The notes under the pieces were generated by a model. That model did no database searches. It was not told the DNA's origin and saw only the letters and a list, made by a program, of their open reading frames with translations. A stretch of DNA of 64,000 bases from Methanomassiliicoccales archaeon (GTDB taxonomy: Archaea; Thermoplasmatota; Thermoplasmata; Methanomassiliicoccales; UBA472): positions 46,483 to 110,482 of the forward strand of contig JAXGRO010000001.1 in NCBI GenBank assembly GCA_040765825.1. The letters run 5' to 3'. The translations under genes and the position numbers were made by a program. How positions within the stretch are numbered: the stretch's first letter is position 1; every line of letters begins with the position of its first letter. Shown piece by piece: positions 3,442-55,245 of the stretch.

Positions 3442-3529
3442 CCTCGGACTGGGAAGCGCCGCACACTGGGCATTTGTCTTGGTTCTTCTTCAGAATACAT
3501 CCGCAGACAATGCACTCGACCAAATCCAC
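3428..3529 (-). CDS. Candidate zinc-ribbon micro-protein (31-33 aa)
   Basis: It is read from GTG 3529 (or TTG 3523) to TAG 3430..3428: (M)DLVECIVCGCILKKNQDKCPVCGASQSEDDDY. It has two CxxC knuckles, an acidic tail and GC3-rich codons. Its 3' end overlaps the radical-SAM ATG at 3441 by 14 nt. It is below the ORF-track size cut-off and the start codon is uncertain. Confidence 0.35.
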   Translation of the reverse strand: MDLVECIVCGCILKKNQDKCPVCGASQSEDDDY

Positions 3530-3604
3530 CCTCTTGGACCGGTAGGGGTTTGAAAAGCAATAATGTTTCGGTTCGAAGCCCGATGGGAGTTAGAAGTGAC
3601 CTGC

Positions 3605-21456: not shown

Positions 21457-22283
21457 TCAGGCGGGGATGAGAAGCACCGGCCCGCTGGACCCCTTGACCA
21501 CCTCTTCGGAGGTCGATCCCAGGGTCGCCCCGCGCAGGTAGCTCTTGCCGGTGGTCCCCAGCATAATGAGGGTGGCCTCGGCCTCCCTGGCGGACTCCAG
21601 GATGTTGTAGGTGGAGGTTCCGAACCTCACGTAGGTATCCACCTGACAATCCCCTGTCTCCAGCTTGGAGCGGTGCTCCTCAAGCTTGCGGTTGACCTCC
21701 TGGAACCGGCGCTCGTCGGTGATGCTGTACCGTGAGGATTGCACACCACGTGCAGAAGCGTCACGCGTCTGGCCCCGGCGTCGATCAACTGCTGGACGTA
21801 GGGCATCATGTGCTTGGTGGCCTTCGAAAGGTCCAGGGTCACCAGCACGCTGTCCAGCAATCCGGGGGATTGCTCCACGAAGCCCACCGGGTCGCTGTCG
21901 GCCTCCATGGGGAACTTGTCCAGAAGCACCGGCAGCTTGGATCGCCGGATCACCGCCAGGGAGGTGCTGCCCACGAAGAACTCCCTGACCCTCCCCTTTC
22001 CGGAGGCGGCCATGGCGATCATGGTCGAGCCGTGGGCCTCCGCGGCCTTCAGGATGGCCGAGGCAGGGTCCTTGCGGACCTCGGTGACCACCCGGTGCTT
22101 CAGCCCTGATTCCCCAAGACGATCGTCGATGGCCTTGAGCAGCGGGTCCCTCTTGGAATGGTGCTCCAGGGCTGAGTAGAGGACCACCTCCCGGACGCCG
22201 TAGGAGGCCATGCGCGCGGCGGTGGTGGCCATCATCTGCGATTGCGGGGAAAGGTCCACGGGCACCAGCAGCTTCTCGAACAT
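21457..22283 (-). pseudogene. Tandem universal stress protein (2 x UspA domain) split by a frameshift
   Basis: Domain 1 and the start of domain 2 (MFEKLLVPVDLS...RVTLLHVV) are in the frame of ORF 21627..22469. The rest of domain 2 (YSITDERRFQEV...ATLIMLGTTGKSYLRGATLGSTSEEVVKGSSGPVLLIPA) is in ORF 21457..21744. The frames meet at gtggtgtgcaa (~21742-21746). Confidence 0.75.
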
Positions 22284-22413
22284 GTGAGCGTGCCTATAAC
22301 CCTGAGCGGGGGATATTATCCTTTTCCAGAAAAGCCCCGCCGTTCGCACTTTCGATGGATGGTCCGCAAGCTTGATGACCGGGTAACCGTTCATCGGTGG
22401 CTGTCGCCCTTCC

Positions 22414-23301
22414 ATGAGAACCGCCGCGCTGTCCGACCTGTCGCCCAAGACCGGGGCCCTGCTCACCACCCTGCTCTCCAGCCTGATGCTGGGGACCTCC
22501 TACGTGGCGGTCAAGATGCAGGTCGGCGGTGCCAACCCGTTCCTCCTGGGGGCGGCCATCATGGCCGTGGGCTCGGCCCTTCTGCTGGGATACCTGGTGT
22601 TCACCGGAGGCCTGGACCGGCGCATGCTCGGGCGCTGGGAGTTCTGGGCGGCCCCGCTGATCAACACCGGGGTGGTGGCCCCTTCCTACCTGGGCCTGAC
22701 CATGACCACCGCCTCCGCCGCCGGGCTCATAATCGGTACCAACGTGGTCTTCGTGGCCCTCTTCAGCAAGATACTGTTCAGGGAGAGCATGGGATGGCGC
22801 CGACTGCTGGGGATAGGGGTGGCATTGCTGGGACTGATCACCCTCACCACCCGCTGGGACCTGTCCGTGCTGCAGGGCTCCCAGCTAACCGGGAACCTGT
22901 TGGTGCTGCTCTCCTCGGCCTGCATAGGCGTCTCGGTGGTTACCTCGCGCATCGCCCTGCGCAGCATGTCCCCCGGGCAGTGGAGCCTGGGGCTGCACCT
23001 GTTCCTGCCGGCCACGCTCGTGGCCTTCTACTTCCTGATACCTCTGGAGGGGGGCTTCGGAACGGATGACCTGCCCGCGACCCTGTTCATCGGGGCGGTC
23101 TGCACCACCGTGCCCACGGTCCTCTGGACGTCCGCGCTGAAGCACATCAGCGTGGTCACCTCGGCCACCGTGCTCATGGTGGAATCGGCCTTCGCGGTGT
23201 TCCTGAGCTGGCTCCTGCTGGGGGAGGTCATGGACCTCTTCGTGATAGGCGGGGCGGTCATGATCTTCCTGGCCATATCGCTGCTGGCCAGGAACGATTG
23301 A
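22414..23301 (+). CDS. EamA/DMT-family transporter
   Basis: 295 aa with ten hydrophobic segments in two EamA-like halves. Confidence 0.85.
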   Translation: MRTAALSDLSPKTGALLTTLLSSLMLGTSYVAVKMQVGGANPFLLGAAIMAVGSALLLGYLVFTGGLDRRMLGRWEFWAAPLINTGVVAPSYLGLTMTTASAAGLIIGTNVVFVALFSKILFRESMGWRRLLGIGVALLGLITLTTRWDLSVLQGSQLTGNLLVLLSSACIGVSVVTSRIALRSMSPGQWSLGLHLFLPATLVAFYFLIPLEGGFGTDDLPATLFIGAVCTTVPTVLWTSALKHISVVTSATVLMVESAFAVFLSWLLLGEVMDLFVIGGAVMIFLAISLLARND

Positions 23302-38189: not shown

Positions 38190-38974
38190 GCGGGGTGGAG
38201 GACCGGCTGTCCCTGCTGGTTCGGAACGCCAGGGACCTGGTGGACTGCGGGTTCTACAGCACCCCGGATGCATCTGACGGGGGACCTGGTCCCCGGGTCT
38301 CGTTGGTCTCCGCCCTGCGCGCGAACGATAGCTTTCCAGTGGTGGCGGAGGTAAAGCTGGCCTCTCCCGTGGCCGGGAGGCTGGGAACGCATGTGGCCGA
38401 GGAGCTGATCGAGGACTACCGTTCCGGTGGTGCCGCAGGCCTCTCCGTGCTCACAGAGCCCCGATTCTTCCAGGGTTCGCTCCGTTACCTGAAGATGGCC
38501 TGCCGGACCGGGCTGCCGGCGATGATGAAGGACTTCGTGGTGGACCGTGAGCAGGTGATCTGCGCCGCCCGCGCGGGGGCCTCCGCCATACTGCTCATAC
38601 AAGGGGTGTTCGACTGGGACCTGGCCGAGGGACGTGACGCCCTGGTGGACGAGGCCCATCGTCTGGGTCTGGAGGTGGTGCTGGAGGCTTCCACGCTGGA
38701 GGAGCTCCAGGAGGCCCGCCGCTCCAGGGCGGATGTCCTGGCCTACAATCGCCGGGACCTGCGCACCTTCCGGCCCGGCCCGGACCTCCTCGCGGAAGCC
38801 CTGGGATCGGTCCGGGGAGACGAGCGGCCGACCCTGGTCATGAGCATGATGGGCTCTCTTGAGGACCTCCGCAGGGTCCGGGAGCTGGGGGGTTCCGGGG
38901 TGCTGATAGGCACGGCCCTGAGCTCCTCCCCCTGTCCGAGGGACAAGCTGATCTCCCTGAGGCTGGGCGCATGA
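38183..38974 (+). CDS. trpC: Indole-3-glycerol-phosphate synthase
   Basis: VVAEVKLASPVAG and the (beta/alpha)8 pattern are present. The TTG start at 38183 lies 5 nt after GGGGGAGG and overlaps the trpD stop. GTG 38195 is an alternative start. Confidence 0.85.
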   Translation: MLSGVEDRLSLLVRNARDLVDCGFYSTPDASDGGPGPRVSLVSALRANDSFPVVAEVKLASPVAGRLGTHVAEELIEDYRSGGAAGLSVLTEPRFFQGSLRYLKMACRTGLPAMMKDFVVDREQVICAARAGASAILLIQGVFDWDLAEGRDALVDEAHRLGLEVVLEASTLEELQEARRSRADVLAYNRRDLRTFRPGPDLLAEALGSVRGDERPTLVMSMMGSLEDLRRVRELGGSGVLIGTALSSSPCPRDKLISLRLGA

Positions 38975-39585
38975 CCCGGTTGAAGATATGCGGCCTGCGC
39001 GCCCTCCAGGACTTGGAGGCCTGCAGGGGGGCGGACTACCTGGGATTCGTGGTGCGGTCCGATTCGCCCCGCTGCCTTCCGCTGGAGAGGGCCGCGGAGC
39101 TGATGTCGGTGTGCGACGGGGTTCGGGTGGCGGTGACCACCGAGACCCGGGTGGAAGCACTTAGGTTGATCGTCAGGACCCTGGAACCGGACGTGATGCA
39201 GCTGCACTCGCCCCTCGATCCGGGCCTGCTGAAGGAGGTTTCGGATATGGGAGTGCCGGTCTGGGGGATGATGACGGTGCGTCCGGGGGTGCAGGTCGAG
39301 CCCTGCGCGGCGGAGCGCCTGGAAGCCATGGTGCTGGACAGCCCCGGGCCCCGGGCCGGAGGCAACGGCCGTGCCCACGATTGGAGCCTGAGCCGGAGGC
39401 TGCGGGAGGAGCTGGACCCTTTGCCGGTGGTGTTGGCCGGGGGAATAGGACCGCAGAACGCCCGGGAGGCCGTGGAGATTGTTTCGCCCTACGCCCTGGA
39501 CGTGTCCAGCGGGGTGGAGCGCGCCGGGGGCAAGGACCCCCTCATGGTGAGCGAGCTCATCAGAGCATTGAAAGGTGAGAATTGA
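38971..39585 (+). CDS. trpF: Phosphoribosylanthranilate isomerase
   Basis: It begins MTRLKICGL and has a PRAI-type barrel. It has an ATGA overlap with trpC. Confidence 0.88.
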
Positions 39586-41557: not shown

Positions 41558-41627
41558 TCCCCTGCCCCCAAGGCCCCGGATGACCCTCGGCGAATGTATT
41601 AATCGGGATGATGGGCTTCCCTCCCTC

Positions 41628-42906
41628 ATGGGCCTGAAGGCCGCGGGCGGTGGGAGATCGAGGGACAAGTATCACCGGCATGCCCGGCTCCTGTGGAACC
41701 GCTGGACCGTGCTCGGCATTCTGGCCCTCACCTACTTCCTGGTGTACTTCCACCGGGTATCCCCGGCGGTCCTGGCCGAGGTGCTAAGGGGAGCCTTCGG
41801 CGTCGGGCTGGCCTCCATCGCCGTGCTCAGCTCGGCGTACTTCTACGCCTACACCGTGATGCAGCTTCCCTGCGGCATCTCACCGACCGCTGGGGCCCCG
41901 GCACGGTGTGCGTTCACCGCCCTCTCGGCCCTGGGGGCCTTCGTCACCGCCCTGGCCGCCAGCTTCGAGATGGTGGTCCTGGGCAGGGTCATGATCGGCC
42001 TGGGAGTGGCCATGGTCTACGTTCCCACGTTGAAGGTGCTCTCGGCCTGGTTCCGCAGGGACGAGTTCAGCTCCCTCACCGGGCTTCTGCTGACCGTGGG
42101 CAACATCGGGGGGCTGGCCGCGGCCGGCCCTCTGGCGGCCATGTCCGAGTACGCCGGCTGGCAGAGGGTGTTCCTCGCGCTCGGGGTGCTGACCACTGGT
42201 GCTCACCTGGCTGATGTGGCTTCTGGTGCGGGACCGCCCGGAGGAGGTGGGCCTGCCCAGGGTGAGCGACGAGGAGGAGGGGCAGAGGATGCCGGTGCTG
42301 GCCTCCCTGCGCCTGATCTTCGGCTCGGGCATGCGCTGGCCCTATGCCGCGATCTTCTTCTTCATGTACGGAAGCCTGATGGTGTACCAGGGCTTGCTGG
42401 GCGGACCGTTCTTCCGGGACGTGCTGGGCTGGGACAAGGCCGCCTACGGGTTCTCCCTGACCTTCGTGGGCGTGGGGATGATCGCCGGCTGCCCGGTGGC
42501 GGGTTTCATATCCGACCGGGTGCTGCGCTCCCGGCGCAGGGTCGTGGTCATCGGGACCGCGGCCTTCGCGGTCATGTGGGGGGCGATCTGGATGACCGCG
42601 GGCCAGGTGCACGACCAGTGGGCCTACGTCATCCTGCATTTCACCTTCGGCTTCTTCGCCGGCTGGTACGTCCCGATATACGGGCAGGTCAAGGATTCCT
42701 TTCCCAGGGCGATGTCCGGTACCGCATTGGCCGCTCTGAACGTGTTCCCCTTCGCCGGGGCCGCGGTGCTGCAGTTGGCAGCCGGCAACATGGCCGCGGA
42801 CGGCGCTCTGGCGGACTACCGGTCGGTCTGGGCGCTGATGACCGCCGGGATGGTCGCGGCCTTCGTCCTGGCCGCGCTGTCGCGGGAGGATGGTCCGGCG
42901 CGGTGA
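41628..42906 (+). pseudogene. MFS transporter disrupted by frameshift(s)
   Basis: The N-terminal half is in the frame of ORF 41580..42935 up to ...VFLALGVLTT. The C-terminal half (VLTWLMWLLVRDRPEEVGLP... to 42906) is in ORF 42199..42906. One extra g lies at ~42198. Motif A (GILTDRWGPGTV) is readable only in a third frame between ~41879 and ~41909. Confidence 0.75.
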
Positions 42907-42969
42907 TTTGTATGGCGACCGAAACCGTCGCCTGAAGGCGAGCAATCGTTCGGATAGTGAAAATAGTTG

Positions 42970-43758
42970 CTACTGGTCCTCGACGCTGGAGACGAGCAGG
43001 TGGAGCATGGAGTCGGCGTGCGCGCGGTCCGGTACCAGGGACACCTTGACCCCGTACTCCTCCAGGCGCTCCCTGGTCTCCCGGCCCATGGCCGCCACGG
43101 CGACCCCTTCCAGCAGCATGAGTGCGTTCTCCTTGCCATCCCGCTCCTCCAGCTGCACCAGGAAGGCCTGGGCGTGCGCGGGCGTGGGGAAGGCCAGAAC
43201 ATCTATGCCACCGTCCTCCAGACGGTCAAGCAGCTCCTCCATCTCCTCCCCCTCGTCCACCAGCAGGGCGTACACCGAGACCTGCTCCACCTTCCAGCCC
43301 GTCGATTGAAGGTCCTTCACCATCAGAGGGGAACCCTGGTCCGAGCGCAGGAGGGCCACGGTTCCCCGGCGGGGCAGGCGGTTGATATGGCCGACCAGGG
43401 AATCGGTGGTGGCCTCCGGGGCCACCGATGCCACCCTCAGTCCGTGGTGGGTGGCGGCGGCCGAGGTGCGCTCGCCGATGACCACCATCTCCGTCCGGGA
43501 GACGGACTCCTTAAGCCGGTCCAGCATCTTGCGGCCCCTGGCCATGTGCACCATGGACTCGATGACCGTGGGGCAGGTGACCACCAGGACCTCGAAGCGC
43601 CCGGCGAACAGGTCCACCAGGAACAGGGAGAAGTTGGCGTCGTCAATGGGCTGGGCCCTTAACGGCGAGACGCATATGAAATCGGCCAGCTGCCGGTACG
43701 GCCGGCAAAGAGGCACCCACCTCTCCGGGGGGCCTAGTATGGCCACGACCTTCCTCAT
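42970..43758 (-). CDS. Uroporphyrinogen-III synthase-like protein (second, divergent HemD/HEM4 paralogue)
   Basis: 262 aa with a two-lobe HEM4-like pattern (VVTCPTVIES..., VVIGERTSAAA, ALLRSDQGSPLM, VYALL, AFPTPAHAQAF, AAMGRETRERL). It ends in TAG. Confidence 0.7.
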   Translation of the reverse strand: MRKVVAILGPPERWVPLCRPYRQLADFICVSPLRAQPIDDANFSLFLVDLFAGRFEVLVVTCPTVIESMVHMARGRKMLDRLKESVSRTEMVVIGERTSAAATHHGLRVASVAPEATTDSLVGHINRLPRRGTVALLRSDQGSPLMVKDLQSTGWKVEQVSVYALLVDEGEEMEELLDRLEDGGIDVLAFPTPAHAQAFLVQLEERDGKENALMLLEGVAVAAMGRETRERLEEYGVKVSLVPDRAHADSMLHLLVSSVEDQ

Positions 43759-43781
43759 GTCCCCTCGAAGCGCGCCTATGG

Positions 43782-44537
43782 TTAATTACTTTGCCTGAGG
43801 TGGCCGTCCACCGCCCTCAGCAGGTCCGGGAAGGTGGCCCTCTCCGCGGTCACCTGGACCGACATCCCCAGGGAGAGCAGCGTGTCCCTGGTCGGAGGTC
43901 CGATGGCCGCGTTAATGGCCTCCCATCTGAAATCCGGGCCGAAGAGCTCCGCGGCCCTGGCCACCGTCAACCTCGCGGACAGCGATGAGGTGTGCAGTAT
44001 TGCGTCCACCTTCCCGGACCGCAGCGCCCGCAGCGCCCGGTCCAGGGAATCCCCGCGATCCTCCCTGAGGGAGTAAATGGGCACCTCAAGGAATTCCCGG
44101 AGGCCGAGCAATCCCCTGCCCAGGACGTCGTTGCCCTGGTCCGATCTGAACATGAGCACGCTTCCCTCACCCCGGGAGAGCAGGTCCAGCAGCCCCTCGG
44201 AGGTGTACTCTTCGGGCAGGGAGACCTTCTGGACACCGAGCCTCTTCAGGGCGTCGGCGGTGGGCGGACCGATGGCCACGAGCTCCGTGCCCTGGGGAAC
44301 ATCATCGATGAGGCCCGGGTCGGCCCGCGAAAGGGCCTTCACCGCGGTGACGCTGGCGAACACCAGGGACGTGAAATGGCCCTGCCGCACATCGTTCAGC
44401 AATGCAGTGAGACCCGGCGGTCCGAGGTACTCCACCTCCACCACCGAGGCGCAGATGGCCTGGTGACCGGACGCCTCGACCAGGCGGCGCGACTCCTCCC
44501 AGCGGTCCTGGGGCCGCAGTACCAGCAGGGTGCTCAT
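43782..44537 (-). CDS. hemD: Uroporphyrinogen-III synthase
   Basis: 251 aa with the HEM4 pattern (LVFASVTAVKAL, VAIGPPTADAL, LMFRSDQGNDVL, IYSL, ILHTSSLSARL, AAIGPPTRDTL). It has an ATGA overlap with cobA. Confidence 0.8.
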   Translation of the reverse strand: MSTLLVLRPQDRWEESRRLVEASGHQAICASVVEVEYLGPPGLTALLNDVRQGHFTSLVFASVTAVKALSRADPGLIDDVPQGTELVAIGPPTADALKRLGVQKVSLPEEYTSEGLLDLLSRGEGSVLMFRSDQGNDVLGRGLLGLREFLEVPIYSLREDRGDSLDRALRALRSGKVDAILHTSSLSARLTVARAAELFGPDFRWEAINAAIGPPTRDTLLSLGMSVQVTAERATFPDLLRAVDGHLRQSN

Positions 44538-45277
44538 CGCAGGTCACCCAGCAAGGAGGCCATCTCCACCACCCGACCCACCACGATGACCGACGGGGCG
44601 CGCATCCCCTGTTGCCGGCAGTCCTCGCCGGCCCGGGAGACCGTGGTGATCAGGGACCTCTGCGATGCGCTGGAACCGTCCTGGACCACCGCCACCGGGG
44701 AATCGGGGTCCAGCCCGCCCTCCATCAGCCGCCTCATGTTCCTGTCGATGTTGGACATGCCCATCATGATCACCAGTGTGCCCCCGCTGCGGGCCAGCGC
44801 CGCCCAGTCCAGCCATTCCCCCTCCTTGTGGTCGCCCTCGTGCCCGGTGATGATGGTGACGGACGAGGACAGGGTGCGGTGGGTAACCGGCACTCCGGCC
44901 AGGGCCGGCACGGCTATGCTGGCGCTGACCCCGGGCACCACATGCACCTCCACACCGTGACGGCGCAGGTGCTCGGCCTCCTCGCCCCCCCGGCCGAACA
45001 GGAAGGGGTCCCCGCCCTTCAGCCTGACCACCATGCTCCCCTGATGGGCCTTTTCCAGCAGGATGCGGTTGATCTCCTCCTGTTCGGCCTTGTGGCCTCC
45101 GCCCCTCTTCCCCACGTCGAGCATCTCAGCATCGGGCGGGGCCTCCCGCAGCACCTTCTCCCCCACCAGTGAATCGTGTACCACCACCTCCGCGCTGCGC
45201 AGCAGCTCCAGTCCGCGCACGGTCATCAGCCCGGGGTCGCCCGGACCCGCTCCCACCAGGTATACAACCCCGGCCAT
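44534..45277 (-). CDS. cobA: Uroporphyrinogen-III C-methyltransferase (SUMT)
   Basis: VYLVGAGPGDPGLMT, GGDPFLFGRGGEE and VPGVSA are present. The start was trimmed to ATG 45277, overlapping the hemC stop by 1 nt. Confidence 0.9.
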   Translation of the reverse strand: MAGVVYLVGAGPGDPGLMTVRGLELLRSAEVVVHDSLVGEKVLREAPPDAEMLDVGKRGGGHKAEQEEINRILLEKAHQGSMVVRLKGGDPFLFGRGGEEAEHLRRHGVEVHVVPGVSASIAVPALAGVPVTHRTLSSSVTIITGHEGDHKEGEWLDWAALARSGGTLVIMMGMSNIDRNMRRLMEGGLDPDSPVAVVQDGSSASQRSLITTVSRAGEDCRQQGMRAPSVIVVGRVVEMASLLGDLR

Positions 45278-46146
45278 CAGCTCCACCCCCATTGACGCCT
45301 CATATCCTCGGCCACCCTCAGCACATCCTGTGCCCCCTGCAATCTGGCCTCATACCGCTTGGCCCATGAACCGTCCGGAGAGAGCCAGAGGCAGTGCAGC
45401 ATGATCGCCTCGCCCTCAGGGGAGGCCCAGATGCCCAGGGGGACCTGGCAGCTGGCCCCCAGCTCCAGCATAATCCCCCTCTCCACATCCACGCATCTCC
45501 GCGTCGGCAGATGGTCCAGCCGGGCGATGGCCCCGGCGCGTTCATCGCCCTCGCGGCAGACTAGCGCTATGGCCCCCTGCCCCGCCGGAGGCACCCAGAC
45601 CCCGGGGTCCAGAGCATGTCGGGGCACGTTCTCCCCCAGCCTCTCCAGTCCGGCCTCCGCCAGCACTATGGCGTGGTAATCCCCCCTGCGCCAGCGGTTG
45701 AGGCGGGTGGTGATGTTCCCGCGCAGCTCGGCCACCTCCAGGTCCGGCCGGAGATGCTTCAATAGGGCTTTGCGGCGCACGCTGGAGGTACCCACCACCG
45801 CCCCTTGCGGCAATGCGGACAGATCGGACCTGGACACCAGCACGTCCGCGGAGGGACCCCGGGGAAGGACCGCTGCCAGCATGGTCCCGGGCGTGAGCGC
45901 GGAGGGCATGTCCTTCAGGGAGTTCACCGCCAGGTCGATCTCCCCGGAGAGCAGCCTCTGGTCCAGCTCCTTGGTGAAAACACCGTACCCGCCCATGGCC
46001 TCCAGGGGGGTGCAGCGGTCCCGGTCCCCGCAGGTGGTGATGACCTTGATCTCCGGGGACAGGCCCTCCGGAAGGCCCCCGAGGGCCTCCAGGGCCAGAT
46101 CGGCCTGGGCCATGGCCAGGCGGCTCCCCCTGGTTCCCAGGATCAA
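45277..46146 (-). CDS. hemC: Porphobilinogen deaminase (hydroxymethylbilane synthase)
   Basis: It is the tail of track ORF 45277..47037. The sequence runs (M)ILGTRGSRLAMAQ...GNITTRL...GQGAIAL...ELGASCQVPLG. The TTG start at 46146 overlaps the hemL stop (TTGA). Confidence 0.9.
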   Translation of the reverse strand: MILGTRGSRLAMAQADLALEALGGLPEGLSPEIKVITTCGDRDRCTPLEAMGGYGVFTKELDQRLLSGEIDLAVNSLKDMPSALTPGTMLAAVLPRGPSADVLVSRSDLSALPQGAVVGTSSVRRKALLKHLRPDLEVAELRGNITTRLNRWRRGDYHAIVLAEAGLERLGENVPRHALDPGVWVPPAGQGAIALVCREGDERAGAIARLDHLPTRRCVDVERGIMLELGASCQVPLGIWASPEGEAIMLHCLWLSPDGSWAKRYEARLQGAQDVLRVAEDMRRQWGWS

Positions 46147-47423
46147 GCCATCCCCTCCAGGGCCTCTGAGAACGCCTGCGCGAGCATGCCCATCTCCCGG
46201 TCCCCGTGGGCCAGCGAAAGGAAGCAGGTCTCGAATTGGGAGGGGGGCATGCTCACCCCCAGTTCCAGCATGCTCCGGTAGAAGGACATGTACCTGGACC
46301 GGTCGCATTCCAGGACCTCCCTGGCGTTGCTCAGCGGCCCCCTGCCGAAGAATACCTGGAACATGGACCCCTCGCCCTGCACCTGGGCCTCGATGCCCAG
46401 CCGGGTTATTCCCCTGGAAAGTCGGCCGCGAAGCCGTTCGCCCCGGAGGTTGAGGTCCTGCAGACCCTCCGATTCCAGCACCTCCAGGGTCGCCAGCCCC
46501 GCGCTCAGGCTCATGGGGTTGCCGCTGTACGTTCCAGCCTGGTACACCCTGCCCAGCGGGGAGATGAGGGACATCATCTCCCTGGAGCCGCCGAAGGCAC
46601 CCATGGGCATGCCCCCGCCCAGCACCTTGCCCAGCACGGTCAGGTCCGGGCGAACGCCATAGAGCTCCTGGGCCCCTCCCAGGGAGAGTCGGAATCCGGT
46701 GATGACCTCGTCGAATATGAGCAATGAACCGTGAGAATCGGCCAGGCGGCGCACCTCCGCGAGGTACCCGGGGGAGGGCGGGACGGGGCCCACGTTCCCC
46801 AGCATGGGCTCCAGTATGATCGCGGCCACCTGACCCTTGTTGGCCCTCAGCGCCCCCTCCATCTGATCCGGGTCGTTGTAATCGACCACCAGAGTATGGG
46901 CGGCCACCTCCTCCAGCACCCCCGCAGAATCCGGGGAGCCGTGGGTCAGCGCCCCTGAGCCGGAGCGCACCAGCACGGCGTCGTGCGCACCGTGGAAGCC
47001 GCCGTCCACCTTTATGACCTTCTTGCGGCCGGTGCACCCGCGGGCCAGGCGCAGCGCGTGCATGGTGGCCTCGGTGCCGCTGCTCACGAAGCGCATCATC
47101 TCCATGCTCGGGAGGTGACCACGGACCTTCTCGGCCAGCAACACCTCCTTCTCGTGCGGCGCACCGTACAATGTGCCCAGGGCGGCCTGCTCCCGAAGAA
47201 CGCTGACGATGGCCGGATGGGCATGTCCCAGCAACATCGGCCCGTAGCCCAGCACCAGGTCCACGTACTCCCGGCCGTCGACGTCGACCACCATGGCCCC
47301 CCGCCCCTGTTCGATGTACAGGGGGAAGGGCTTCACCGCGCGCACCGGGGAGGACACCCCGCCGGGCATGAGGTCGACCGCCCTTGAGTATAGCTTCCTT
47401 GAGCGTTCGGTCAGTTCACTCAC
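46143..47423 (-). CDS. hemL: Glutamate-1-semialdehyde 2,1-aminomutase
   Basis: It shows the class-III aminotransferase pattern PGGVSSPVRA, FDEVITGFR and the lysine region VLGKVLGGG. The start is GTG. Confidence 0.95.
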   Translation of the reverse strand: MSELTERSRKLYSRAVDLMPGGVSSPVRAVKPFPLYIEQGRGAMVVDVDGREYVDLVLGYGPMLLGHAHPAIVSVLREQAALGTLYGAPHEKEVLLAEKVRGHLPSMEMMRFVSSGTEATMHALRLARGCTGRKKVIKVDGGFHGAHDAVLVRSGSGALTHGSPDSAGVLEEVAAHTLVVDYNDPDQMEGALRANKGQVAAIILEPMLGNVGPVPPSPGYLAEVRRLADSHGSLLIFDEVITGFRLSLGGAQELYGVRPDLTVLGKVLGGGMPMGAFGGSREMMSLISPLGRVYQAGTYSGNPMSLSAGLATLEVLESEGLQDLNLRGERLRGRLSRGITRLGIEAQVQGEGSMFQVFFGRGPLSNAREVLECDRSRYMSFYRSMLELGVSMPPSQFETCFLSLAHGDREMGMLAQAFSEALEGMA

Positions 47424-48369
47424 CTCGGAGAACGTTGGCGATGTCGGCGGCGAAGTATGATATGATGAGGTCCGCCCCCGCCCTGCGTATGCATTGCAGC
47501 GATTCCATGATGCCCGCCTTGAGGTCCAGGGCCCCCTGCGCCGCGGCGCACATGATCATGGCGTACTCGCCGCTCACCTGATAGGCGCAGATGGGCAGGT
47601 CGAACTCCTGATGGGCCCGGAATATCACGTCCAGGTAGGGCAGGGCAGGCTTGACCATCAGGATGTCCGCCCCCTCCTGCGCATCCGCCCTAAGCTCCCG
47701 GACGGCCTGCCGGGCGTTGCCTGGGTCCATCTGGTGGGAGCGGCGGTCGCCATGCGATGGGCAGCTGCCAACCATGTCCCGGAAGGGACCGTAGAAGCAT
47801 GAGGCGAACTTGGCCGAATAGGCCATTATCCCCGTGTCGATGAACCCTTCGGCGTCCAGGGCCTTCCGTATGGCCGCCACCTGCCCGTCCATCATGCCCG
47901 AGGGGGCCACCATATCCGCCCCGGCCCGGGCATGGGAGACGGCTATCCTTCCATATAGCTCCAGGGTGGGGTCGTTGAGCACCATGCCGCCCTCCAGCAC
48001 CCCGCAGTGTCCGTGGTCGGTGTACTCGCAAAGGCACAGGTCGGTGATGACCGGAAGATCGCAAGCATCCTTGACCTTCCTGATCGCCCTCTGCACCGCC
48101 CCCGGGGGGTTCCATGCCTCCGAACCCGTGGGATCCTTGCTGCACGGCACTCCGAACAGCAGCACCGCGCCAAGTCCGAGATTGCCCAGGCGAACGCATT
48201 CCCCGGCCACCTCGTCCAGGGGCAGCGCGAACTGCCCGGGAAGGGTGGACACCTCCCTCCGTTCACTGATGTTCTCGTCCACGAACACCGGTTGGATCAG
48301 CTGTCCGGGCCGCAGGGAGGTCTCCTGGAGCATCCTGCGCAGTTGCGGCGTGGTCCTAAGCCTTCTCAT
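47416..48369 (-). CDS. hemB: Porphobilinogen synthase (ALA dehydratase)
   Basis: It begins MRRLRTTPQLRRMLQETSL and has MVKPALPYLD (the active-site Lys) and YQVSGEYAM. ATG 48369 follows AGGAAAGG and lies inside the hemA 3' end. Confidence 0.9.
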   Translation of the reverse strand: MRRLRTTPQLRRMLQETSLRPGQLIQPVFVDENISERREVSTLPGQFALPLDEVAGECVRLGNLGLGAVLLFGVPCSKDPTGSEAWNPPGAVQRAIRKVKDACDLPVITDLCLCEYTDHGHCGVLEGGMVLNDPTLELYGRIAVSHARAGADMVAPSGMMDGQVAAIRKALDAEGFIDTGIMAYSAKFASCFYGPFRDMVGSCPSHGDRRSHQMDPGNARQAVRELRADAQEGADILMVKPALPYLDVIFRAHQEFDLPICAYQVSGEYAMIMCAAAQGALDLKAGIMESLQCIRRAGADLIISYFAADIANVLRGE

Positions 48370-49626
48370 CCTTTCCTGCGGGTACGTCCTGCACCACCTC
48401 CAATGCGAATATCTCCTTGGTACTGCGCAGCAGTCCACCATCACCCTGCCTGCTGGCGATCTTGACCGCGGCTGTGGGATCGGCCAGGAAGCGGCTCATC
48501 AGGGATGAGGCCAGAGCCTCCAGCACCTCCTCGGCGGATTCCCCTGCCTTCAGCCGGTTCAGGGCCTTGCCCACCTCCCGGGCCTTCATGCCCTCGTACT
48601 TGATGTAGACCAGCCGGAGGATCTCCGCGGCCCTCATCTCGTCCAACCGGCGGGAGAGCAGGTCCAGCTCGTCCTTTACCACCCGTTCGGCGTTGAAGAC
48701 CTCCATCCTGCGCCTCTCCAGGTTCTCCCTGGCCACCTCGTTCAAGGCCGACAGGTCGCAGAGTTGCACTCCCGGTATGGAGCGCACGGCCTGGTCCACG
48801 TTGCGCGGGAAGGAGACGTCGATTATGAACATGCCCCGACCCGAACGTCGCTCCATGGCCGGGGATATCTCCTTGAGTCCCAGGATGTTGTGGGTGGCCG
48901 AGGTGGCGCAGAGAACCACGTCGGCCTTGACCAGATAGTCATGGAGATGCTCGAAGCGCACCGCCTTCCCGTCCAGCGACCAGGCCAGCTCCACCGCCCG
49001 TGCATAGGTGCGGTTGGAGACGAAGACCGCCTCCGGCCCCTTCCCGGCCAGATGCTTGGCGATCAGGGAGGCCATCTGTCCGGCCCCCACCACCAGGACG
49101 GTCTTGCCCTTCAGGTCCCCCATGCGGGATTCGGCCAGGTCCACCGCGGCCGAGCCGATCGATACATTGCCCTTGTTCACCCGGGTCTCGGTTCGCACCC
49201 TCTTTCCGGTGTTGAGGGCTTTGCGGAACACCTCGCCCATCAGCGGACCGCAGCACCCCTCGCGGCAGGAGAGCTCGAAGGCCTCCTTTACCTGGGACTG
49301 GATCTGGTCCTCACCCACGATCATGGATTCCAGCCCCGAGGCCACCCGCAGGAGATGATGCAGGGTCTCCTTTCCAGCCATGTACCGGACCAGACTGCCC
49401 TGGGCCTCGTAGGGGAGAAGCGATGCCACAAGGCCCTCCAGCCCCTCGCGTGCCGCCTCCCTTTCCCGGGACACCAGGTAGAACTCACCCGGTTGCAGGT
49501 CTTGAGCACCGCGCACTCGCCACCTGGGCGGTGCGCATCTCTGAAGAATGGCCGCGGCGTCCATCTGCCCCAGCTGCCCCAGGTCCTGGATACGGAGTCC
49601 TTGTGCTTGATGTGCGCGCTGAGCAA
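48356..49626 (-). pseudogene. hemA: Glutamyl-tRNA reductase with 5' region broken by three apparent 1-nt indels (or sequence errors)
   Basis: The body frame (48356..49564) carries GLESMIVGEDQIQSQV, the NADPH site VVGAGQMA and the dimerisation helix. The catalytic motif LKTCNRV is encoded only in the other frame (ORF 49321..49626, TTG start 7 nt after the sirC stop). EFYLV follows it in the body frame. Confidence 0.8.
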
Positions 49627-49633
49627 AAGAACG

Positions 49634-50218
49634 TCATTTGACCGCCTCCTTGGCGATCTCCCGTACCTCGTCTTGATCGCGGGCCAATGCCTCCCAGACG
49701 TGCCTGTTCTCCAGCATACGCCGGATACGCCCCTCCCTATCAGCTGGATCGGGGAATGTCTCCCTCAGCTCCTCCCTCAGCCTCTCGCTGAGGTCCACCA
49801 TGTCCTCGATGGAAGCGGACAGATCCCTCTCCAGCAGCAGACGGATGTACCTGGACATGCCAGGGCTACGACCCAGTGTGGACACTGCGATGGTGTAATT
49901 GCGTTTCTCCACCACCGAGGGAATGAGGAAATCACCTGGGCGGTCGGACCTGTTGCATGGCTTTCCCTGGACCCTTGCGCGTTCGAATATGACATCGTCG
50001 GTCGAGGTGTCTCCGGTGGCGGCCACCACGAGGTCCGTCCCGCCGATCAGGTGAAGGTTATCGAGGACCTCCCCTCTGATGAAGCGGATGCCTGCAGGGA
50101 CCTCGCACGGCTGCCGGTCCACGATAACGACATCGGCCTCCTTGAAGAGGTACAAGGCCTTGCGCATGCCCACTAGCCCGGCGCCGAAGACCACCGCCTT
50201 CCTCCCTCTGAGATCCAT
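49634..50218 (-). CDS. sirC: Precorrin-2 dehydrogenase / sirohydrochlorin-forming enzyme (SirC, CysG-N/Met8-like)
   Basis: 194 aa with the Rossmann motif KAVVFGAGLVGMRK, followed by the SirC-type C-terminal helical domain. Confidence 0.8.
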   Translation of the reverse strand: MDLRGRKAVVFGAGLVGMRKALYLFKEADVVIVDRQPCEVPAGIRFIRGEVLDNLHLIGGTDLVVAATGDTSTDDVIFERARVQGKPCNRSDRPGDFLIPSVVEKRNYTIAVSTLGRSPGMSRYIRLLLERDLSASIEDMVDLSERLREELRETFPDPADREGRIRRMLENRHVWEALARDQDEVREIAKEAVK

Positions 50219-50293
50219 GAACAGGGGTAACAGCTAGACCACTCGGACCCCCACATATCTTAGCGTAATAAAAATGCTTCTATTTTTAATATG

Positions 50294-50320
50294 AATAACA
50301 TTCATATAATTAATGTTATT
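50294..50320. promoter_or_regulatory. Perfect 9-bp inverted repeat centred in sirC/cfbA divergent control region
   Basis: The repeat is AATAACATT-catataatt-AATGTTATT. It lies between the TATA-like element for sirC (rc of ~50262-50275) and the one for cfbA (taatatttat, ~50336-50346). Confidence 0.45.
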
Positions 50321-50380
50321 TTTAGATTCAATAGTAATATTTATCAAGTCCTTGGAATATCGGCATGCAAGGTGGTTCTG

Positions 50381-50770
50381 ATGAAGAACGGAGTATTGGT
50401 AGTGGGACATGGAAGCAAGATGGAGCACAACATGGGACTGGTGGTCAGCATGGCCAAGAGACTTCAGGAGAAGGGCGAGTTCGGACCGGTGGAGGCCGCG
50501 TTCATGCAGCTGAACGATCCGGACATACCCACTGGGCTGGCCAACGTGGCCGCCAGGGGCGCGGACATTATCTACGTGGTGCCCTGCTTCCTGGCCACGG
50601 GCATACACACCACCGAGGACATCCCGGGCGTGTTGGGGTTCTCCAAGGGGCAGCGCTCCGGAAAGGTCAAGGCGGGAGGGCGCACCGTGGAGGTCCGCTA
50701 CTGCCAGCCAATGGGTGACGACGCCCGCCTGGCGGAGATACTGGCCGACCGGGTCAAGGCCGAGATGTGA
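50381..50770 (+). CDS. cfbA: Sirohydrochlorin nickelochelatase / small CbiX(S)-type chelatase
   Basis: 129 aa from ATG 50381 (AAGGTGG upstream). LVVGHGSK and PCFLATGIHTTEDIP are the class II chelatase His motifs. Confidence 0.85.
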   Translation: MKNGVLVVGHGSKMEHNMGLVVSMAKRLQEKGEFGPVEAAFMQLNDPDIPTGLANVAARGADIIYVVPCFLATGIHTTEDIPGVLGFSKGQRSGKVKAGGRTVEVRYCQPMGDDARLAEILADRVKAEM

Positions 50771-50772
50771 AC

Positions 50773-52056
50773 ATGAAGGTGCTCGTACTGGACCTCACCC
50801 ATGGTGGGGAGGTCCTGGCCCGGGAGTACCTGCGCCGCGGGAACCAAGTCACTGCGGTGGACATCTATCGAACTGCCGTGGAGACCGCACGATGCCTTTC
50901 CGCTGAGGGAGTGCGTATCCTTCCGGCGGCGCCGGACGAGCGGTTCGATCTTGCGGTGGCTCCCGTGCATTCACCGGACCGTTTCATCGGGAAGGCCTTG
51001 GCCGATCGAAAGCTCACCCATCATCAGGCCGTGGGTGAACTGGCCAGCTTCCCGTATCCGGTGGTGGAGGTCACCGGGGTCAGGGGTAAGACCGGCACCG
51101 TGCGCGTGCTCTCATTCCTGATGGCCTCGATGGGCAGGAGGGTGTTGTGCCTGAGCAGCTCGGGACTGAGCCGGTACGATGGTGAGGAGACGGTGCTGGA
51201 GGACAAGGTCAGCATTGCCCCTCCCACCTTGCTCAGGCTGTCCTCCTCGCCAACGGACGTGGACCTCGGCGTCTTCGAGGTCAGCCTGGGAGGCACCGGG
51301 ATCGGGAAGGTCTCGGTGATAACCGGCCTGCAGGAGAATTATCCCATCGCGGCCGGTACGCGCCGGGCCTTCGACGGAAAATCGCAGATGGCCGAATCGG
51401 CCCGGGATGTCCTGATCATCCCCAAGGGTGAGGAGGAGACCTGGAGGCCCCTGGCCCGGAGATGCCGGCGGATGGTGACCTTCGGCAAGGGCGGCGATGT
51501 GGAGGCGGAGGTGTCGAACGCGGCACTGGGCTCCCCTTCCCTGCTCACCGTGCGCACTGGGCGGGGAGAGAGGGAGGTCCCCCTGCAGCCGTCGTTCCTG
51601 CCTGATGCTTACACCCTGGCCTTCTCCTGCGCCCTGGCCGCGGCCGAGGGATTGGGCAGCGACCCGCTGGAAATTTGCCCGTCGTTGAGCGGCTTTCCGG
51701 GCGCCAGAGGAAGGGCCGAGGTCCTTGTGGACGAACGGGGGGAGATGGTCAGGGAACGCAACCCCGGGGTGTGCACCGCCTCCTTGGACTTCATCATTGA
51801 CCGCATGGTCCGAGAACACGGGTGCCGGGACATCGGACTGGTGCTCGATCCTGTGAACATGAAGGTGTGCGAGAAGCTGGACCTGGAACGGATGGCGGAG
51901 ATGTGCGAGCGGCATCCCCAGGTCACCGGGAGGTACATTCTTCCCAGTGGGATGCGGGAAGGCGGTTCACAGCTCTTCGAGCCCGTTGGTAACGTGGACG
52001 AGGTCCGGACGCGCCACCGCACCGTGCTGTGGGCCACCAAGGAGGGATACCTTTGA
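50773..52056 (+). CDS. cfbE: Coenzyme F430 synthetase (Mur-ligase-like)
   Basis: It begins MKVLVLDLTHGG and has the P-loop VTGVRGKTGT, with Mur-ligase-like central and C-terminal domains. GTG 50767, overlapping the cfbA stop, is an alternative start. Confidence 0.85.
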   Translation: MKVLVLDLTHGGEVLAREYLRRGNQVTAVDIYRTAVETARCLSAEGVRILPAAPDERFDLAVAPVHSPDRFIGKALADRKLTHHQAVGELASFPYPVVEVTGVRGKTGTVRVLSFLMASMGRRVLCLSSSGLSRYDGEETVLEDKVSIAPPTLLRLSSSPTDVDLGVFEVSLGGTGIGKVSVITGLQENYPIAAGTRRAFDGKSQMAESARDVLIIPKGEEETWRPLARRCRRMVTFGKGGDVEAEVSNAALGSPSLLTVRTGRGEREVPLQPSFLPDAYTLAFSCALAAAEGLGSDPLEICPSLSGFPGARGRAEVLVDERGEMVRERNPGVCTASLDFIIDRMVREHGCRDIGLVLDPVNMKVCEKLDLERMAEMCERHPQVTGRYILPSGMREGGSQLFEPVGNVDEVRTRHRTVLWATKEGYL

Positions 52057-53135
52057 GCGATGTGCTGCACCCCCGGCCGAACCCCATAGTTGCCGCCATG
52101 TACACCCTGCGGGACATGGACGCCGAGGTGATCGTGGTGCACGGTCCCGCCGGATGCGGATTCATGGTCTCCAGGCGATTGGAGGACGCCGGGGTCCGCG
52201 TTGTCACCACGGGCATGAAGGAGAACGATCTGATATTCGGGGCCGAGGAGAAGCTGGCGGAAACGCTTCGTCTGGTGCAGGACCGTTTCTCCCCGGGCCT
52301 GGTGGGGGTCGTGGGGACCTGCGCCAGCATGATAATCGGCGAGAACCTGGACCGGGCGGTGCAGAAGGCCGGGCTCAAGGCCAAGGTCATCCCGGTCGAC
52401 GTGCACGGCTGTTCGGGGGCCAACACCACCGGGGCCATAAGGGCCCTGGAGGTGGCCGCTGAGAGGGGGGTGATCCCGCAGGAGGAGATGTTCCGCCAGA
52501 GGGAGATGCTGACCCGGGCCACCCTGCTGGAGAGCAACCGGGGGCTGACCAGCAAGGAGCACCTGTCACCGAACTACGGGGTCACCAAGTACTCGGCCGC
52601 GAGACGCATCAGGGACGTCCTGGCCACAGGGGGACGGGTCCTGGTGGTTCTGAACGGCAAGAAGGAGCTGGCCTACGGGCATGCCGACGTGCTGCGGGGG
52701 GTGCAGGAGAGCGCGGACGCCCTGGGCGGAGAGGCCGTCTTCGTGGGCAACCTGGACCCGAACGTGGGATTGCCGCGCATCCGTCGTTACGCTCGGGAAA
52801 TACTGAGGGACCTGGAGTGCGCCGGGGTGTCCCTGGAACGTGACACCGGTGGGCTGGACGAGTACCCCGTGGCGGGGATCAGGGCCGCGGAGGCGGTAAG
52901 CGAGATCGACCACGATCTGCTGGTGGCCTGCGGCATTGTGCATGCCATACCGAACCTTGACCGCAGGGCGGTGCTGGTCTCCGACCAGCCGCGGGAGGTG
53001 GACAATTACCTTCGTGACGGTTATGCCATGGTGGTCTCCGAACCGGACATCCACCCCCGGGTCATGGGAGCCTCGGGGATCATCAGGATGGAGCTGGCGG
53101 ACACCCTGCGCGAGATGGCCGCGGAGGGGAAATGA
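52053..53135 (+). CDS. cfbD: Ni-sirohydrochlorin a,c-diamide reductive cyclase, NifD/BchN-like subunit (NflD)
   Basis: HGPAGCG and VGTCASMIIGENL are nitrogenase-component-1-like. The TTG start at 52053 follows AAGGAGGGA and overlaps the cfbE stop. Confidence 0.85.
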   Translation: MSDVLHPRPNPIVAAMYTLRDMDAEVIVVHGPAGCGFMVSRRLEDAGVRVVTTGMKENDLIFGAEEKLAETLRLVQDRFSPGLVGVVGTCASMIIGENLDRAVQKAGLKAKVIPVDVHGCSGANTTGAIRALEVAAERGVIPQEEMFRQREMLTRATLLESNRGLTSKEHLSPNYGVTKYSAARRIRDVLATGGRVLVVLNGKKELAYGHADVLRGVQESADALGGEAVFVGNLDPNVGLPRIRRYAREILRDLECAGVSLERDTGGLDEYPVAGIRAAEAVSEIDHDLLVACGIVHAIPNLDRRAVLVSDQPREVDNYLRDGYAMVVSEPDIHPRVMGASGIIRMELADTLREMAAEGK

Positions 53136-53923
53136 GGCAGATAGCAATCTACGGGAAGGGCGGCATCGGAAAATCCACGGTGGCCGCCAATGTGGTGGCC
53201 AGCATGGCCGAGTCCGGCCTTCGCGTATGGTACGTGGGCTGCGACCCCAAGGCCGACGGTTCCATGACCCTGCTGGGCGGAAGGAAGATGGAAACATTCC
53301 TGGACCGCATGAAGGATGGCGGGCCCGGGGAATACGAGGTGGGATTGGGCTTCCAAGGGGCCATGTGCATGGAGGTCGGAGGCCCTCTGGCGGGCGTGGG
53401 CTGCGCCGGCCGGGGGATTATTGTTGCACTGCAGGCCCTGAAGAGGGACCACTTCCGGGACCCTCCGGACGTGGTGCTCTACGACGTCCCAGGGGACGTG
53501 GTCTGCGGTGGCTTCGCCACCCCGGTGCGCCAGGGGTTCGCGGACGAGGTGTACGTGGTCACCTCCGGAGAGTACCTGTCCCTGTACGCCGCCAACAACA
53601 TATGCCGGGGGATGCGCAACCTGGGGGTGGGAGTGGGCGGCCTGATCTGCAACTCCAGGGAAGTGATGAACGAGAGGGAGGCTGTGGCCTCGGTGGCGGG
53701 AAGGCTGGGCACCAAGATGCTGGGATTCGTGCCCCGGCACCGTTCCGTGCGGGACTGCGAGAACGCCGGCCGAACGGTGGTCGAGGGGGCGCCCGATTCC
53801 GAGCAGGCCCGGGCCTACCGGGAGCTGGCGGCCGCCATGCTCTCCAATTCCAGCTTCGCCGTGCCCCAGCCAATCGACCCCGCGGAGCTGCGATCGATGC
53901 TTAAGGAGCTGACCGCGGAATGA
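53132..53923 (+). CDS. cfbC: Ni-sirohydrochlorin a,c-diamide reductive cyclase, NifH-like ATPase subunit (NflH)
   Basis: IYGKGGIGKSTV, GCDPKADG and the cluster Cys residues GVGCAGRG...CGGF are present. It has an ATGA overlap with cfbD. Confidence 0.9.
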   Translation: MRQIAIYGKGGIGKSTVAANVVASMAESGLRVWYVGCDPKADGSMTLLGGRKMETFLDRMKDGGPGEYEVGLGFQGAMCMEVGGPLAGVGCAGRGIIVALQALKRDHFRDPPDVVLYDVPGDVVCGGFATPVRQGFADEVYVVTSGEYLSLYAANNICRGMRNLGVGVGGLICNSREVMNEREAVASVAGRLGTKMLGFVPRHRSVRDCENAGRTVVEGAPDSEQARAYRELAAAMLSNSSFAVPQPIDPAELRSMLKELTAE

Positions 53924-55245
53924 GGAGGGTGGTACTGGCCGGCTCGGGCAGCGGGGTGGGGAAGACCAGCATCGCCGCCGGGCTCATGCTGCGCCTGGGT
54001 GACGGGGTCCAGCCCTTCAAGGTCGGGCCGGACTTCATCGACCCCATGTTCCATTCCCTGGCCACCGGGCGCCCCTCCAGGAACCTGGACACGTTCATGA
54101 TGGACCCTGAGGTGATGGTGGAGCACTTCCGCTGGGCCTGCCGGGACGCGGACATGGCCCTGGTGGAGGGAGTGCGGGGGCTGTATGACGGCCTCACCTC
54201 CACCGAGGACGTGGGGAGCACCGCGGAGATAGCCAAGCTGCTGGACGCGCCGGTGGTGCTGGTGATCAACGCCCGCAGCCTGGCCAAGAGCGCTGCGGCG
54301 GTCGCGCTCGGATTCAAGAATCTGGACCCCCGGGTGCGGGTGGCCGGGGTCATCCTGAACAACGTGAGCGGGGAACGGCATCGGCGCAAGGCCACGGAGG
54401 CCGTGGAGCAGCTGGCAAAGCTGCCGGTGCTGGGAGCGGTGGAGCGGGGAAGGTCCCTTCCGGAAAGGCATCTCGGACTGCTCACCGTGGAGGAGCACGG
54501 GGACCGGGAAAGGCTCAAGGACGAACTGCGGGGGATGGTTGAGGACATCGATCTGGAGATGCTGAGGGAGATCGCCGAGACCTCTGGACCGATGGAGCCG
54601 CGCCGGGAGCCGCTCTTCCCCCGCGGGGACTCCGGGGCCAAGGTGGCCGTGCCCATGGACCGCTCGTTCTGCTTTTACTACCGGGAGAACCTGGAGGCCC
54701 TGGAGATGGCCGGGGCCGAGCTGCGTTACTTCCGCCCTGAGGAGGGCCAGGGCCTTCCGGACGCGGACCTGTACTATCTGGGCGGGGGGTATCCGGAGGC
54801 ACATATGGAGGAGATATCGGCCAACAGGGACTTCCTGGAGGGGCTGGGGAACGCCGCTGACGACCGGGCCATCTACGCGGAGTGCGGGGGGCTCATGATC
54901 CTGTGCTCGGCCATAGAGGCCGGCGGACGGGCGGAGATGGCCGGGGTGTTCCCCTGCGAGGCGCATCTGACCCCCGAGCGCCAGGGGCTCTCGTACGTCC
55001 GGGCGGCGGGCACCGCGCACAACCCCTTCTTCCCCGGGATCGAGGTGAGGGGGCATGAGTTCCACTACTCCCGCCTGGTTCCCCTCCCAGCCGGCCCCTT
55101 CGGTTTCGATGTGAGCAGGGGCACGGGCATAGACGGCCGCCACGACGGCATGGTGCGGGGGAAGGTGCTGGGAAGCTACCTGCATATGCACGCCCTCTCC
55201 CGCCTGGACTGGGGGAAAAGGCTTCTGGATGCGGCCCTGAGCTGA
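53920..55245 (+). CDS. cfbB: Ni-sirohydrochlorin a,c-diamide synthase (CbiA/CobB family amidotransferase)
   Basis: It has GSGSGVGKTS and the PDFIDP region. The C-terminal GATase has the nucleophile ECGGLMIL. It has an ATGA overlap with cfbC. Confidence 0.9.
   Translation: MRRVVLAGSGSGVGKTSIAAGLMLRLGDGVQPFKVGPDFIDPMFHSLATGRPSRNLDTFMMDPEVMVEHFRWACRDADMALVEGVRGLYDGLTSTEDVGSTAEIAKLLDAPVVLVINARSLAKSAAAVALGFKNLDPRVRVAGVILNNVSGERHRRKATEAVEQLAKLPVLGAVERGRSLPERHLGLLTVEEHGDRERLKDELRGMVEDIDLEMLREIAETSGPMEPRREPLFPRGDSGAKVAVPMDRSFCFYYRENLEALEMAGAELRYFRPEEGQGLPDADLYYLGGGYPEAHMEEISANRDFLEGLGNAADDRAIYAECGGLMILCSAIEAGGRAEMAGVFPCEAHLTPERQGLSYVRAAGTAHNPFFPGIEVRGHEFHYSRLVPLPAGPFGFDVSRGTGIDGRHDGMVRGKVLGSYLHMHALSRLDWGKRLLDAALS

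Follow-up and report, generated by a model that had tools for sequence, protein, structure and literature searches.

A 179-nt patch that breaks hemA in a Methanomassiliicoccales metagenome-assembled genome is best read as a local sequence error

Methyl-reducing methanogens require F430 and corrinoids, and hemA, the gene for glutamyl-tRNA reductase, supplies the synthesis of both. In the stretch of Methanomassiliicoccales archaeon DNA that we analysed (64,000 nt, here called the window; GC content 63.7%), the beginning of hemA is distributed over several reading frames, which raises the question of whether this organism has lost its glutamyl-tRNA reductase or whether the deposited sequence is wrong at this one place. 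The proteins encoded in the window are 97–100% identical to those of the metagenome-assembled genome PtaB.Bin134 (GCA_002067045.1) and likewise to those of contigs from several ENA and Logan samples. Among the matches listed in a GTDB scan UBA472 is the closest, with 83% amino acid identity.

Pfam matches and gene tables place hemA in a tetrapyrrole cluster on the minus strand that comprises two hemD-like genes, cobA, hemC, hemL (46143-47423), hemB (47416-48444), hemA and sirC. The last of these (49634..50218, minus strand) would encode a sirC-like precorrin-2 dehydrogenase of 194 aa with Pfam NAD_binding_7 and CysG_dimeriser domains, and an exact look-up of this product as it stands in the window found no other record. 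Diverging from sirC-hemA on the plus strand is an F430 gene set (50291-55245) that looks complete. It begins with CbiX/cfbA (50291-50770; Pfam and gene tables) and cfbE (50767-52056; gene tables), which is Mur-ligase-like, 429 aa long and without a Pfam match, and continues with Oxidored_nitro/cfbD, NifH-like cfbC and CbiA-GATase_3/cfbB; the cfb names are putative assignments from family content only. Apart from hemA, the genes hemL, hemB, hemC, cobA and hemD and the adjoining cfb genes are intact in the window. Two genes with HEM4 (uroporphyrinogen-III synthase) domains adjoin each other in the cluster (42970-43758 and 43782-44537, minus strand), and a side-by-side HEM4 gene pair is also found in PtaB.Bin134.

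As written, the longest hemA reading frame (48356..49564, minus strand) has 402 aa, starts MDAAAILQRCAPPRWRVRGAQDLQPGEFYLV and lacks the TCNR motif, just as the original prediction had described it. An overlapping ORF in another frame (49321..49626, minus strand) is likewise as described; it reads ...RPGGECAVLKTCNRV and contains GGECAVLKTCNRV. The ORF list and a three-frame layout bear out the claim that the TCNR motif and the gene body are joined in no single frame, with the catalytic Cys codon TGC (49497-49495) sharing its frame with neither the start codon nor the body. The body runs from EFYLVSRE... to the stop (48356..49486, minus strand, frame f1) and carries the rest of GlutR_N together with the NADPH-binding and dimerisation domains. 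Within the 402-aa ORF only profile positions 49-151 of the 151 of Pfam GlutR_N are matched, the NADPH-binding domain is complete (Shikimate_DH, PF01488, 1-138 of 138, E 9e-37) and so is the dimerisation domain (GlutR_dimer, PF00745, 2-99 of 99, E 4e-14).

The active-site Cys of glutamyl-tRNA reductase forms the thioester intermediate of the enzyme (PMC7242693). When the glutamyl-tRNA reductase in 1GPJ is compared with the intact allele P0121, residues 5-394 align (E 4e-76), and the TCNRVE motif falls opposite TSNRVE in the crystallised protein, where Ser replaces the active-site Cys. With the motif off-frame and GlutR_N incomplete, no frame as written would be expected to encode an active glutamyl-tRNA reductase, and in this the earlier reading is upheld. 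A single uninterrupted HemA ORF of ∼420–440 aa is not found; the coding sequence occupies three frames, and the proteins of relatives have 427–429 aa. Translation from the native start yields a 50-aa nonsense ORF (49485..49637, minus strand) that reads MTFFCSARTSS...PATG and then stops. The 101-aa ORF with a TTG start (49321..49626, minus strand) has no Pfam match, and we reject it as a gene in favor of a frameshift by-product.

We aligned the window to intact alleles from 13 contigs (alignments A1 and A2 and pairwise maps). A protein search with the rebuilt N-terminus retrieved P0001, a 429-aa protein of PtaB.Bin134 with 97% identity, together with 427–429-aa relatives that all start M(T/S)xPLLSAHITHK...VLKTCNRVEFY. 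The alignments to intact alleles delimit an anomalous patch of 179 nt (49487..49665) in which the window has six deletions, five of 1 nt and one of 3 nt, and 10 substitutions of its own. The 1-nt deletions fall after window positions 49631, 49594, 49542, 49533 and 49487, and the 3-nt deletion is located at ∼49525-49520. The substitutions private to the window are at 49665, 49663, 49632, 49630, 49628, 49607, 49606, 49592 and ∼49519, plus a tenth that is ambiguous with the 3-nt gap. The length of hemA, 1282 nt compared with 1290 nt in the intact alleles, agrees with eight missing bases. It had been proposed that three 1-nt indels account for the damage; the frame breaks are there, but their number, sign and position differ from what was proposed, as the alignment finds six indel events. 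The accompanying remark that two or three of the indels sit in short homopolymers is true of only 2–3 of the six deletions, which lie in GG or GGGG runs.

Followed along the native gene, the coding frame passes from f0 (MT) to f2 (LLSAHIKHKDS), f1 (IQDLGQLGQMDAAAILQ), f0 (EMR), f2 once more (RPGGECAVLKTCNRV) and finally f1, the EFYLV... body. According to the gene tables the native start is an ATG (49635..49637, minus strand) that overlaps the sirC stop TGA in the form ATGA. In all relatives hemA starts 4 nt before the end of sirC (for example in L001, with sirC at 2464-3048 and hemA at 3045-4334), and ATGAC is conserved in alignment A1. Translation of the true gene thus starts at this ATG (49637), whose overlap with the end of sirC recurs in every relative, and not at the TTG at 49626 that had been taken for the start. 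At the upstream edge of the patch, two private non-synonymous substitutions (49665 and 49663) change the last codons of sirC from ...DEAWEIAK to ...DEVREIAK.

Codons 4-15 (LLLSAHIKHKDS; 49594..49629, minus strand, f2) were placed by the three-frame layout, the N-termini of P0001 and P0121 and tblastn, and are flanked by deletion 1 in codon 3 (TGC > T-T) and deletion 2 in codon 16 (TGC > -GT). Codons 17-33 (49541..49591, minus strand, f1) include the ATG at which the 402-aa ORF begins (49564); a G>A change giving R>Q within this segment is common to L100, L101 and L102 and is therefore a real polymorphism. Codons 34-36 (EMR; 49533..49541, minus strand) lie in f0 between deletions 3 and 4, as seen from f0 ...SSEMRT... 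set against ...LQEMRDRPG... of P0001 and from alignment A2. The next segment, codons ∼38-54 (RPG-GECAVLKTCNRV; 49486..49530, minus strand, f2), holds the 3-nt deletion and the Cys codon. It is ended by deletion 5 (GTGGAG > GTGAG), which makes the TGA that stops the frame opened from the native ATG. What had been read as a single +1 shift at ∼49526 is really two -1 deletions with the EMR codons in the third frame. The codon-3 deletion and the EMR segment had both been overlooked, and the peptide rebuilt as '...AILQRCAPPGGECAV' was wrong; the intact alleles read '...AILQEMRDRPGVEECAV'.

Pieces of a peptide in alternating frames are what would be seen if the protein were restored at five sites by programmed recoding, either frameshifting of the ribosome or slippage during transcription. 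Nothing further points to such a mechanism, and much speaks against it: in strains of 99.8% identity the same peptide is read from a single uninterrupted frame, the five shift sites contain no slippery heptamers (X XXY YYZ), junction residues are missing or altered, and a 3-nt deletion is present as well. Moreover, we know of no precedent for five programmed shifts within 150 nt. We consider recoding vanishingly improbable.

The lesions are confined to one record. Of the 11 proteins in the 90%-identity cluster of P0001, seven, P0001 included, have 429 aa and a normal N-terminus (P0001, P0121, P0125, P0126, P0128, P0129 and P0130). These intact proteins are encoded on ∼20 contigs from NCBI, ENA, JGI and Logan. 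Three shorter members on ∼1-kb contigs look like fragments, and P0123 is the only truncated 402-aa form; its sequence is that of the window ORF, and it is known from a single NCBI contig. None of the 13 aligned contigs shares any of the hemA deletions with the window. A 42-mer and a 45-mer from the patch had no exact match in JGI metagenome contigs, a collection that does hold hemA of the same species (P0125 and P0128). At the level of sequence, these comparisons show that the lesions are private to one assembly and that independent assemblies are intact, as would be expected of an error patch.

The damage is also sharply bounded. Our closest comparator, L100 (Logan SRR12746492), covers window positions 48218-54637, and over the 6428 nt compared 17 of the 29 differing columns and all eight gap columns lie inside the 179-nt patch. 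Outside the patch we counted 12 differing sites in 6.25 kb, corresponding to 99.8% identity, and zero indels. The patch is ∼9–10% divergent between flanks that are 99.8–100% identical. Clustering of 17 out of 29 columns in 179 of 6428 nt has a binomial P of ∼1e-19, and the six indel events observed in the patch compare with 0.007 expected (P ∼1e-16). One patch substitution is synonymous and nine are non-synonymous, and among the residues replaced are the T in HITHK and a sirC W, both invariant in relatives. The background was taken from L103 (20.9 kb, 99.67% identity), against which the window shows 54 synonymous, 9 non-synonymous and 3 intergenic differences (Fisher P = 4e-6 for patch versus background classes) and a single private indel in the 20.9 kb. 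These distributions show changes that are sharply localised and unfiltered by selection, both being features expected of an error patch.

The same numbers bear on the possibility that hemA is an old pseudogene under neutral decay. Several frame disruptions and non-synonymous changes at the 5′ end would fit such a history, but the 1131-nt body is fully open and identical to functional alleles. Changes distributed along the gene are not seen, as all of them fall in the first ∼150 nt of hemA and at the end of sirC, and under uniform decay the placement of 16 out of 16 changes in 179 of ∼1310 nt has a P of ∼1e-14. Neutral decay is for practical purposes excluded because ∼9% divergence in 179 nt is set against zero changes in the next 1.1 kb, and we regard it as extremely unlikely. 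It had been argued from the window alone that old decay is hard to reconcile with the open 1.1 kb, and the 0 nucleotide differences of the body from L001 or L100 strengthen that argument.

A codon-usage frame map flagged two further same-strand frame switches in the window. The first is in a tandem Usp gene (21457-22499, minus strand), which is frameshifted by a 2-nt insertion of CA at 21742-21743 (GTGGTG[TG]CAAT on the coding strand). This insertion is private to the window: seven loci of 99.5–99.8% identity, distributed over six contigs of other samples, do not have it. There the gene is called intact, and five of these six contigs list it as a 274-aa protein. The second is in an MFS_1 transporter gene (41580-42906, plus strand), which is split in two frames near 42197, with Pfam positions 1-164 in one and 161-345 in the other. 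Compared with its closest relatives it has lesions of -1, -1, -2 and -2 within 35 nt (41878-41912), a +1 at 42197 and a -3 at 42335, and the deletion cluster destroys the conserved LTDRWGPRR (G-x-L-T-D-R-W-G-P-R-R) motif. These relatives are only 81% identical in amino acids and 93% in nucleotides, a distance at which the comparison does not establish that the MFS lesions are private. Besides these loci, the trp operon (35.3-41.5 kb) and all other checked genes are intact. A codon-score scan for hidden compensated frameshifts was too noisy to be of use, ranking the known MFS patch 7th. Three candidates for compensated changes, at 46448 in hemL and, from pairwise alignment, as paired indels at 46410/46415 (hemL) and 51129/51131 (cfbE), turned out to be multi-base substitutions and were rejected.

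The window differs from related genomes in other respects as well. In PtaB.Bin134-type genomes ∼5–6 kb of extra genes lie between the MFS gene and hemD, namely a cupin, two small ORFs, a methyltransferase and ABC/FecCD/periplasmic-binding transporter genes. In the window MFS and hemD are only 64 nt apart (42906-42970, compared with L106 6645-11339 and L001 9900-10334), a difference that represents a strain-level insertion or deletion. Two ENA contigs of 66–67 kb are 99.6–99.7% identical to the window over 12.4–33.3 kb and end inside the trp operon, at ∼38390 and ∼40340 by coordinate extrapolation, where the contig of the window continues. The exact protein encoded at 38971-39585 has no other record. 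The contig ends and the unrecorded protein suggest a trp stretch that is strain-variable or hard to assemble. From 42977 to 52681 the identity of the window to other strains is mosaic: kilobase-scale blocks have zero differences (for example 48400-49480), and there are SNP-dense blocks such as 48000-48400, which has 22 differences from L001 and 1 from L100. Such a pattern would fit recombination between strains that occur together, or a consensus built from more than one strain.

Given such a mosaic, and with other assemblies breaking nearby, the contig might have been threaded through another, decayed piece of the sirC-hemA junction carried by the same genome or by a co-occurring strain. The sharp edges of the patch and its read-like length of ∼180 nt would suit this kind of mis-assembly. 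Against it, neither the window nor any of the contigs retrieved contains such a fragment, and the flanks of the fragment would need to be identical to the true locus. We consider mis-assembly of this kind a very unlikely source of the patch.

A further alternative takes the sequence to be correct. A single local catastrophe at the sirC-hemA junction (a tract of error-prone repair, for instance, or gene conversion over a short stretch with a diverged donor) would then have knocked out hemA very recently, leaving a cell dependent on its neighbours for 5-aminolevulinate or later tetrapyrrole precursors. The lesions do stand in the deposited sequence and are recorded as the 402-aa P0123, errors are not general, given the accuracy of the contig elsewhere, and the Usp and MFS genes are disrupted too. 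This account requires that 179 nt took up 16 changes and the adjoining 1.1 kb took up none, and that a lethal or strongly deleterious variant dominated the assembled population. No known relative shows an intermediate state, and the other genes of the pathway are all intact. We also found no second hemA, repeat or donor copy of the patch within the window. A recent knockout by such an event is, in our estimate, improbable, and a correct sequence that records the loss of glutamyl-tRNA reductase by a single clustered mutational event in an auxotrophic methanogen is a shade less probable still.

A comparable private patch is present in another assembly of the same species. L102 (ERZ3460579 NODE_16272) is a SPAdes contig of 3.5x coverage in which five private 1-nt indel columns crowd together in 46 nt of cobA (window 44991-45036) and hemB has a 2-nt indel at ∼47810 in window coordinates. 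Both genes are split in the L102 gene calls, and the window and L001 agree with each other at these sites.

Taken together, the data point to a local sequence error in one deposited assembly as the origin of the hemA damage, and we give this technical explanation a probability of roughly 85%. Error is favored because the lesions are unique to one contig, deletion-biased and unselected, because an essential gene is disabled while its pathway neighbours are all intact, because L102 has a similar private patch, and because a second multi-deletion cluster is found in the MFS gene of the window. Since the contig is otherwise clean, the error would have to be local. Error or a very recent event had been named as the only choices; that framing holds, and the comparisons shift the choice strongly to error. 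The organism's own hemA would then be an ordinary functional gene for a 429-aa glutamyl-tRNA reductase, with its start translationally coupled to sirC through ATGA, and 49487-49665 would be a local low-quality consensus patch of the deposited contig. The loss of 8 bases, in 6 events, and the 10 further miscalls may go back to a coverage gap or strain bubble that was spanned by as little as one noisy read or a few, or to a region left unpolished.

Some observations weigh against an error. The contig is not generally indel-ridden, and a special local cause must be assumed; homopolymers account for only 2–3 of the 6 deletions and some substitutions are odd (CAT>TAC and CC>AG); and the two further frameshifted genes could also be read as a strain that is truly accumulating pseudogenes. 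No intrinsic cause of a local failure was found in the DNA of the intact patch, which has a fold z of -0.47 and ordinary GC. Motif-specific miscalling was considered, as three of the deletions lie in GGAG, and was rejected on account of unaffected GGAG sites adjoining the patch.

The feature is real as a feature of the sequence, and it is best explained not by biology but by a local patch of errors in a metagenome-assembled genome. Annotation pipelines call a 402-aa HemA without the catalytic cysteine here, and P0123 is recorded in exactly that form. A metabolic reconstruction could wrongly infer from it that tetrapyrrole, F430 or cobamide synthesis has no start. The corrected gene model has 429 aa and begins with the ATG at 49637, and the Usp and MFS genes are two more loci in this contig to be flagged as suspect. 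If the sequence were true, it would represent a rare precursor auxotrophy in a methanogen, with cross-feeding for F430 and corrinoids.

Compared with HemA/GtrR of Methanopyrus kandleri (1GPJ), the window keeps the NADPH-binding and dimerisation domains whole. It differs in that its first 55 codons are spread over three frames and in that the catalytic Cys and the body share no single ORF. Genes that do depend on frameshifting, such as prfB, dnaX and the IS3 transposases, shift frame just once, at a slippery site, and this shift is conserved among their orthologues. Window hemA resembles them in that a functional peptide is spread over more than one frame, but it would need five shifts, none of them conserved, and its orthologues are in frame. 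Indel errors that fragment genes are a known problem, and there are tools that detect and correct them by comparison with homologues (PMC12007338, PMC8011154). Unlike the indel errors of draft, low-coverage or long-read assemblies, those of the window lie in one or two short patches and are not scattered over homopolymers along the contig; like them, the frameshifts of the window are private, deletion-biased and unselected, and they break an essential gene.
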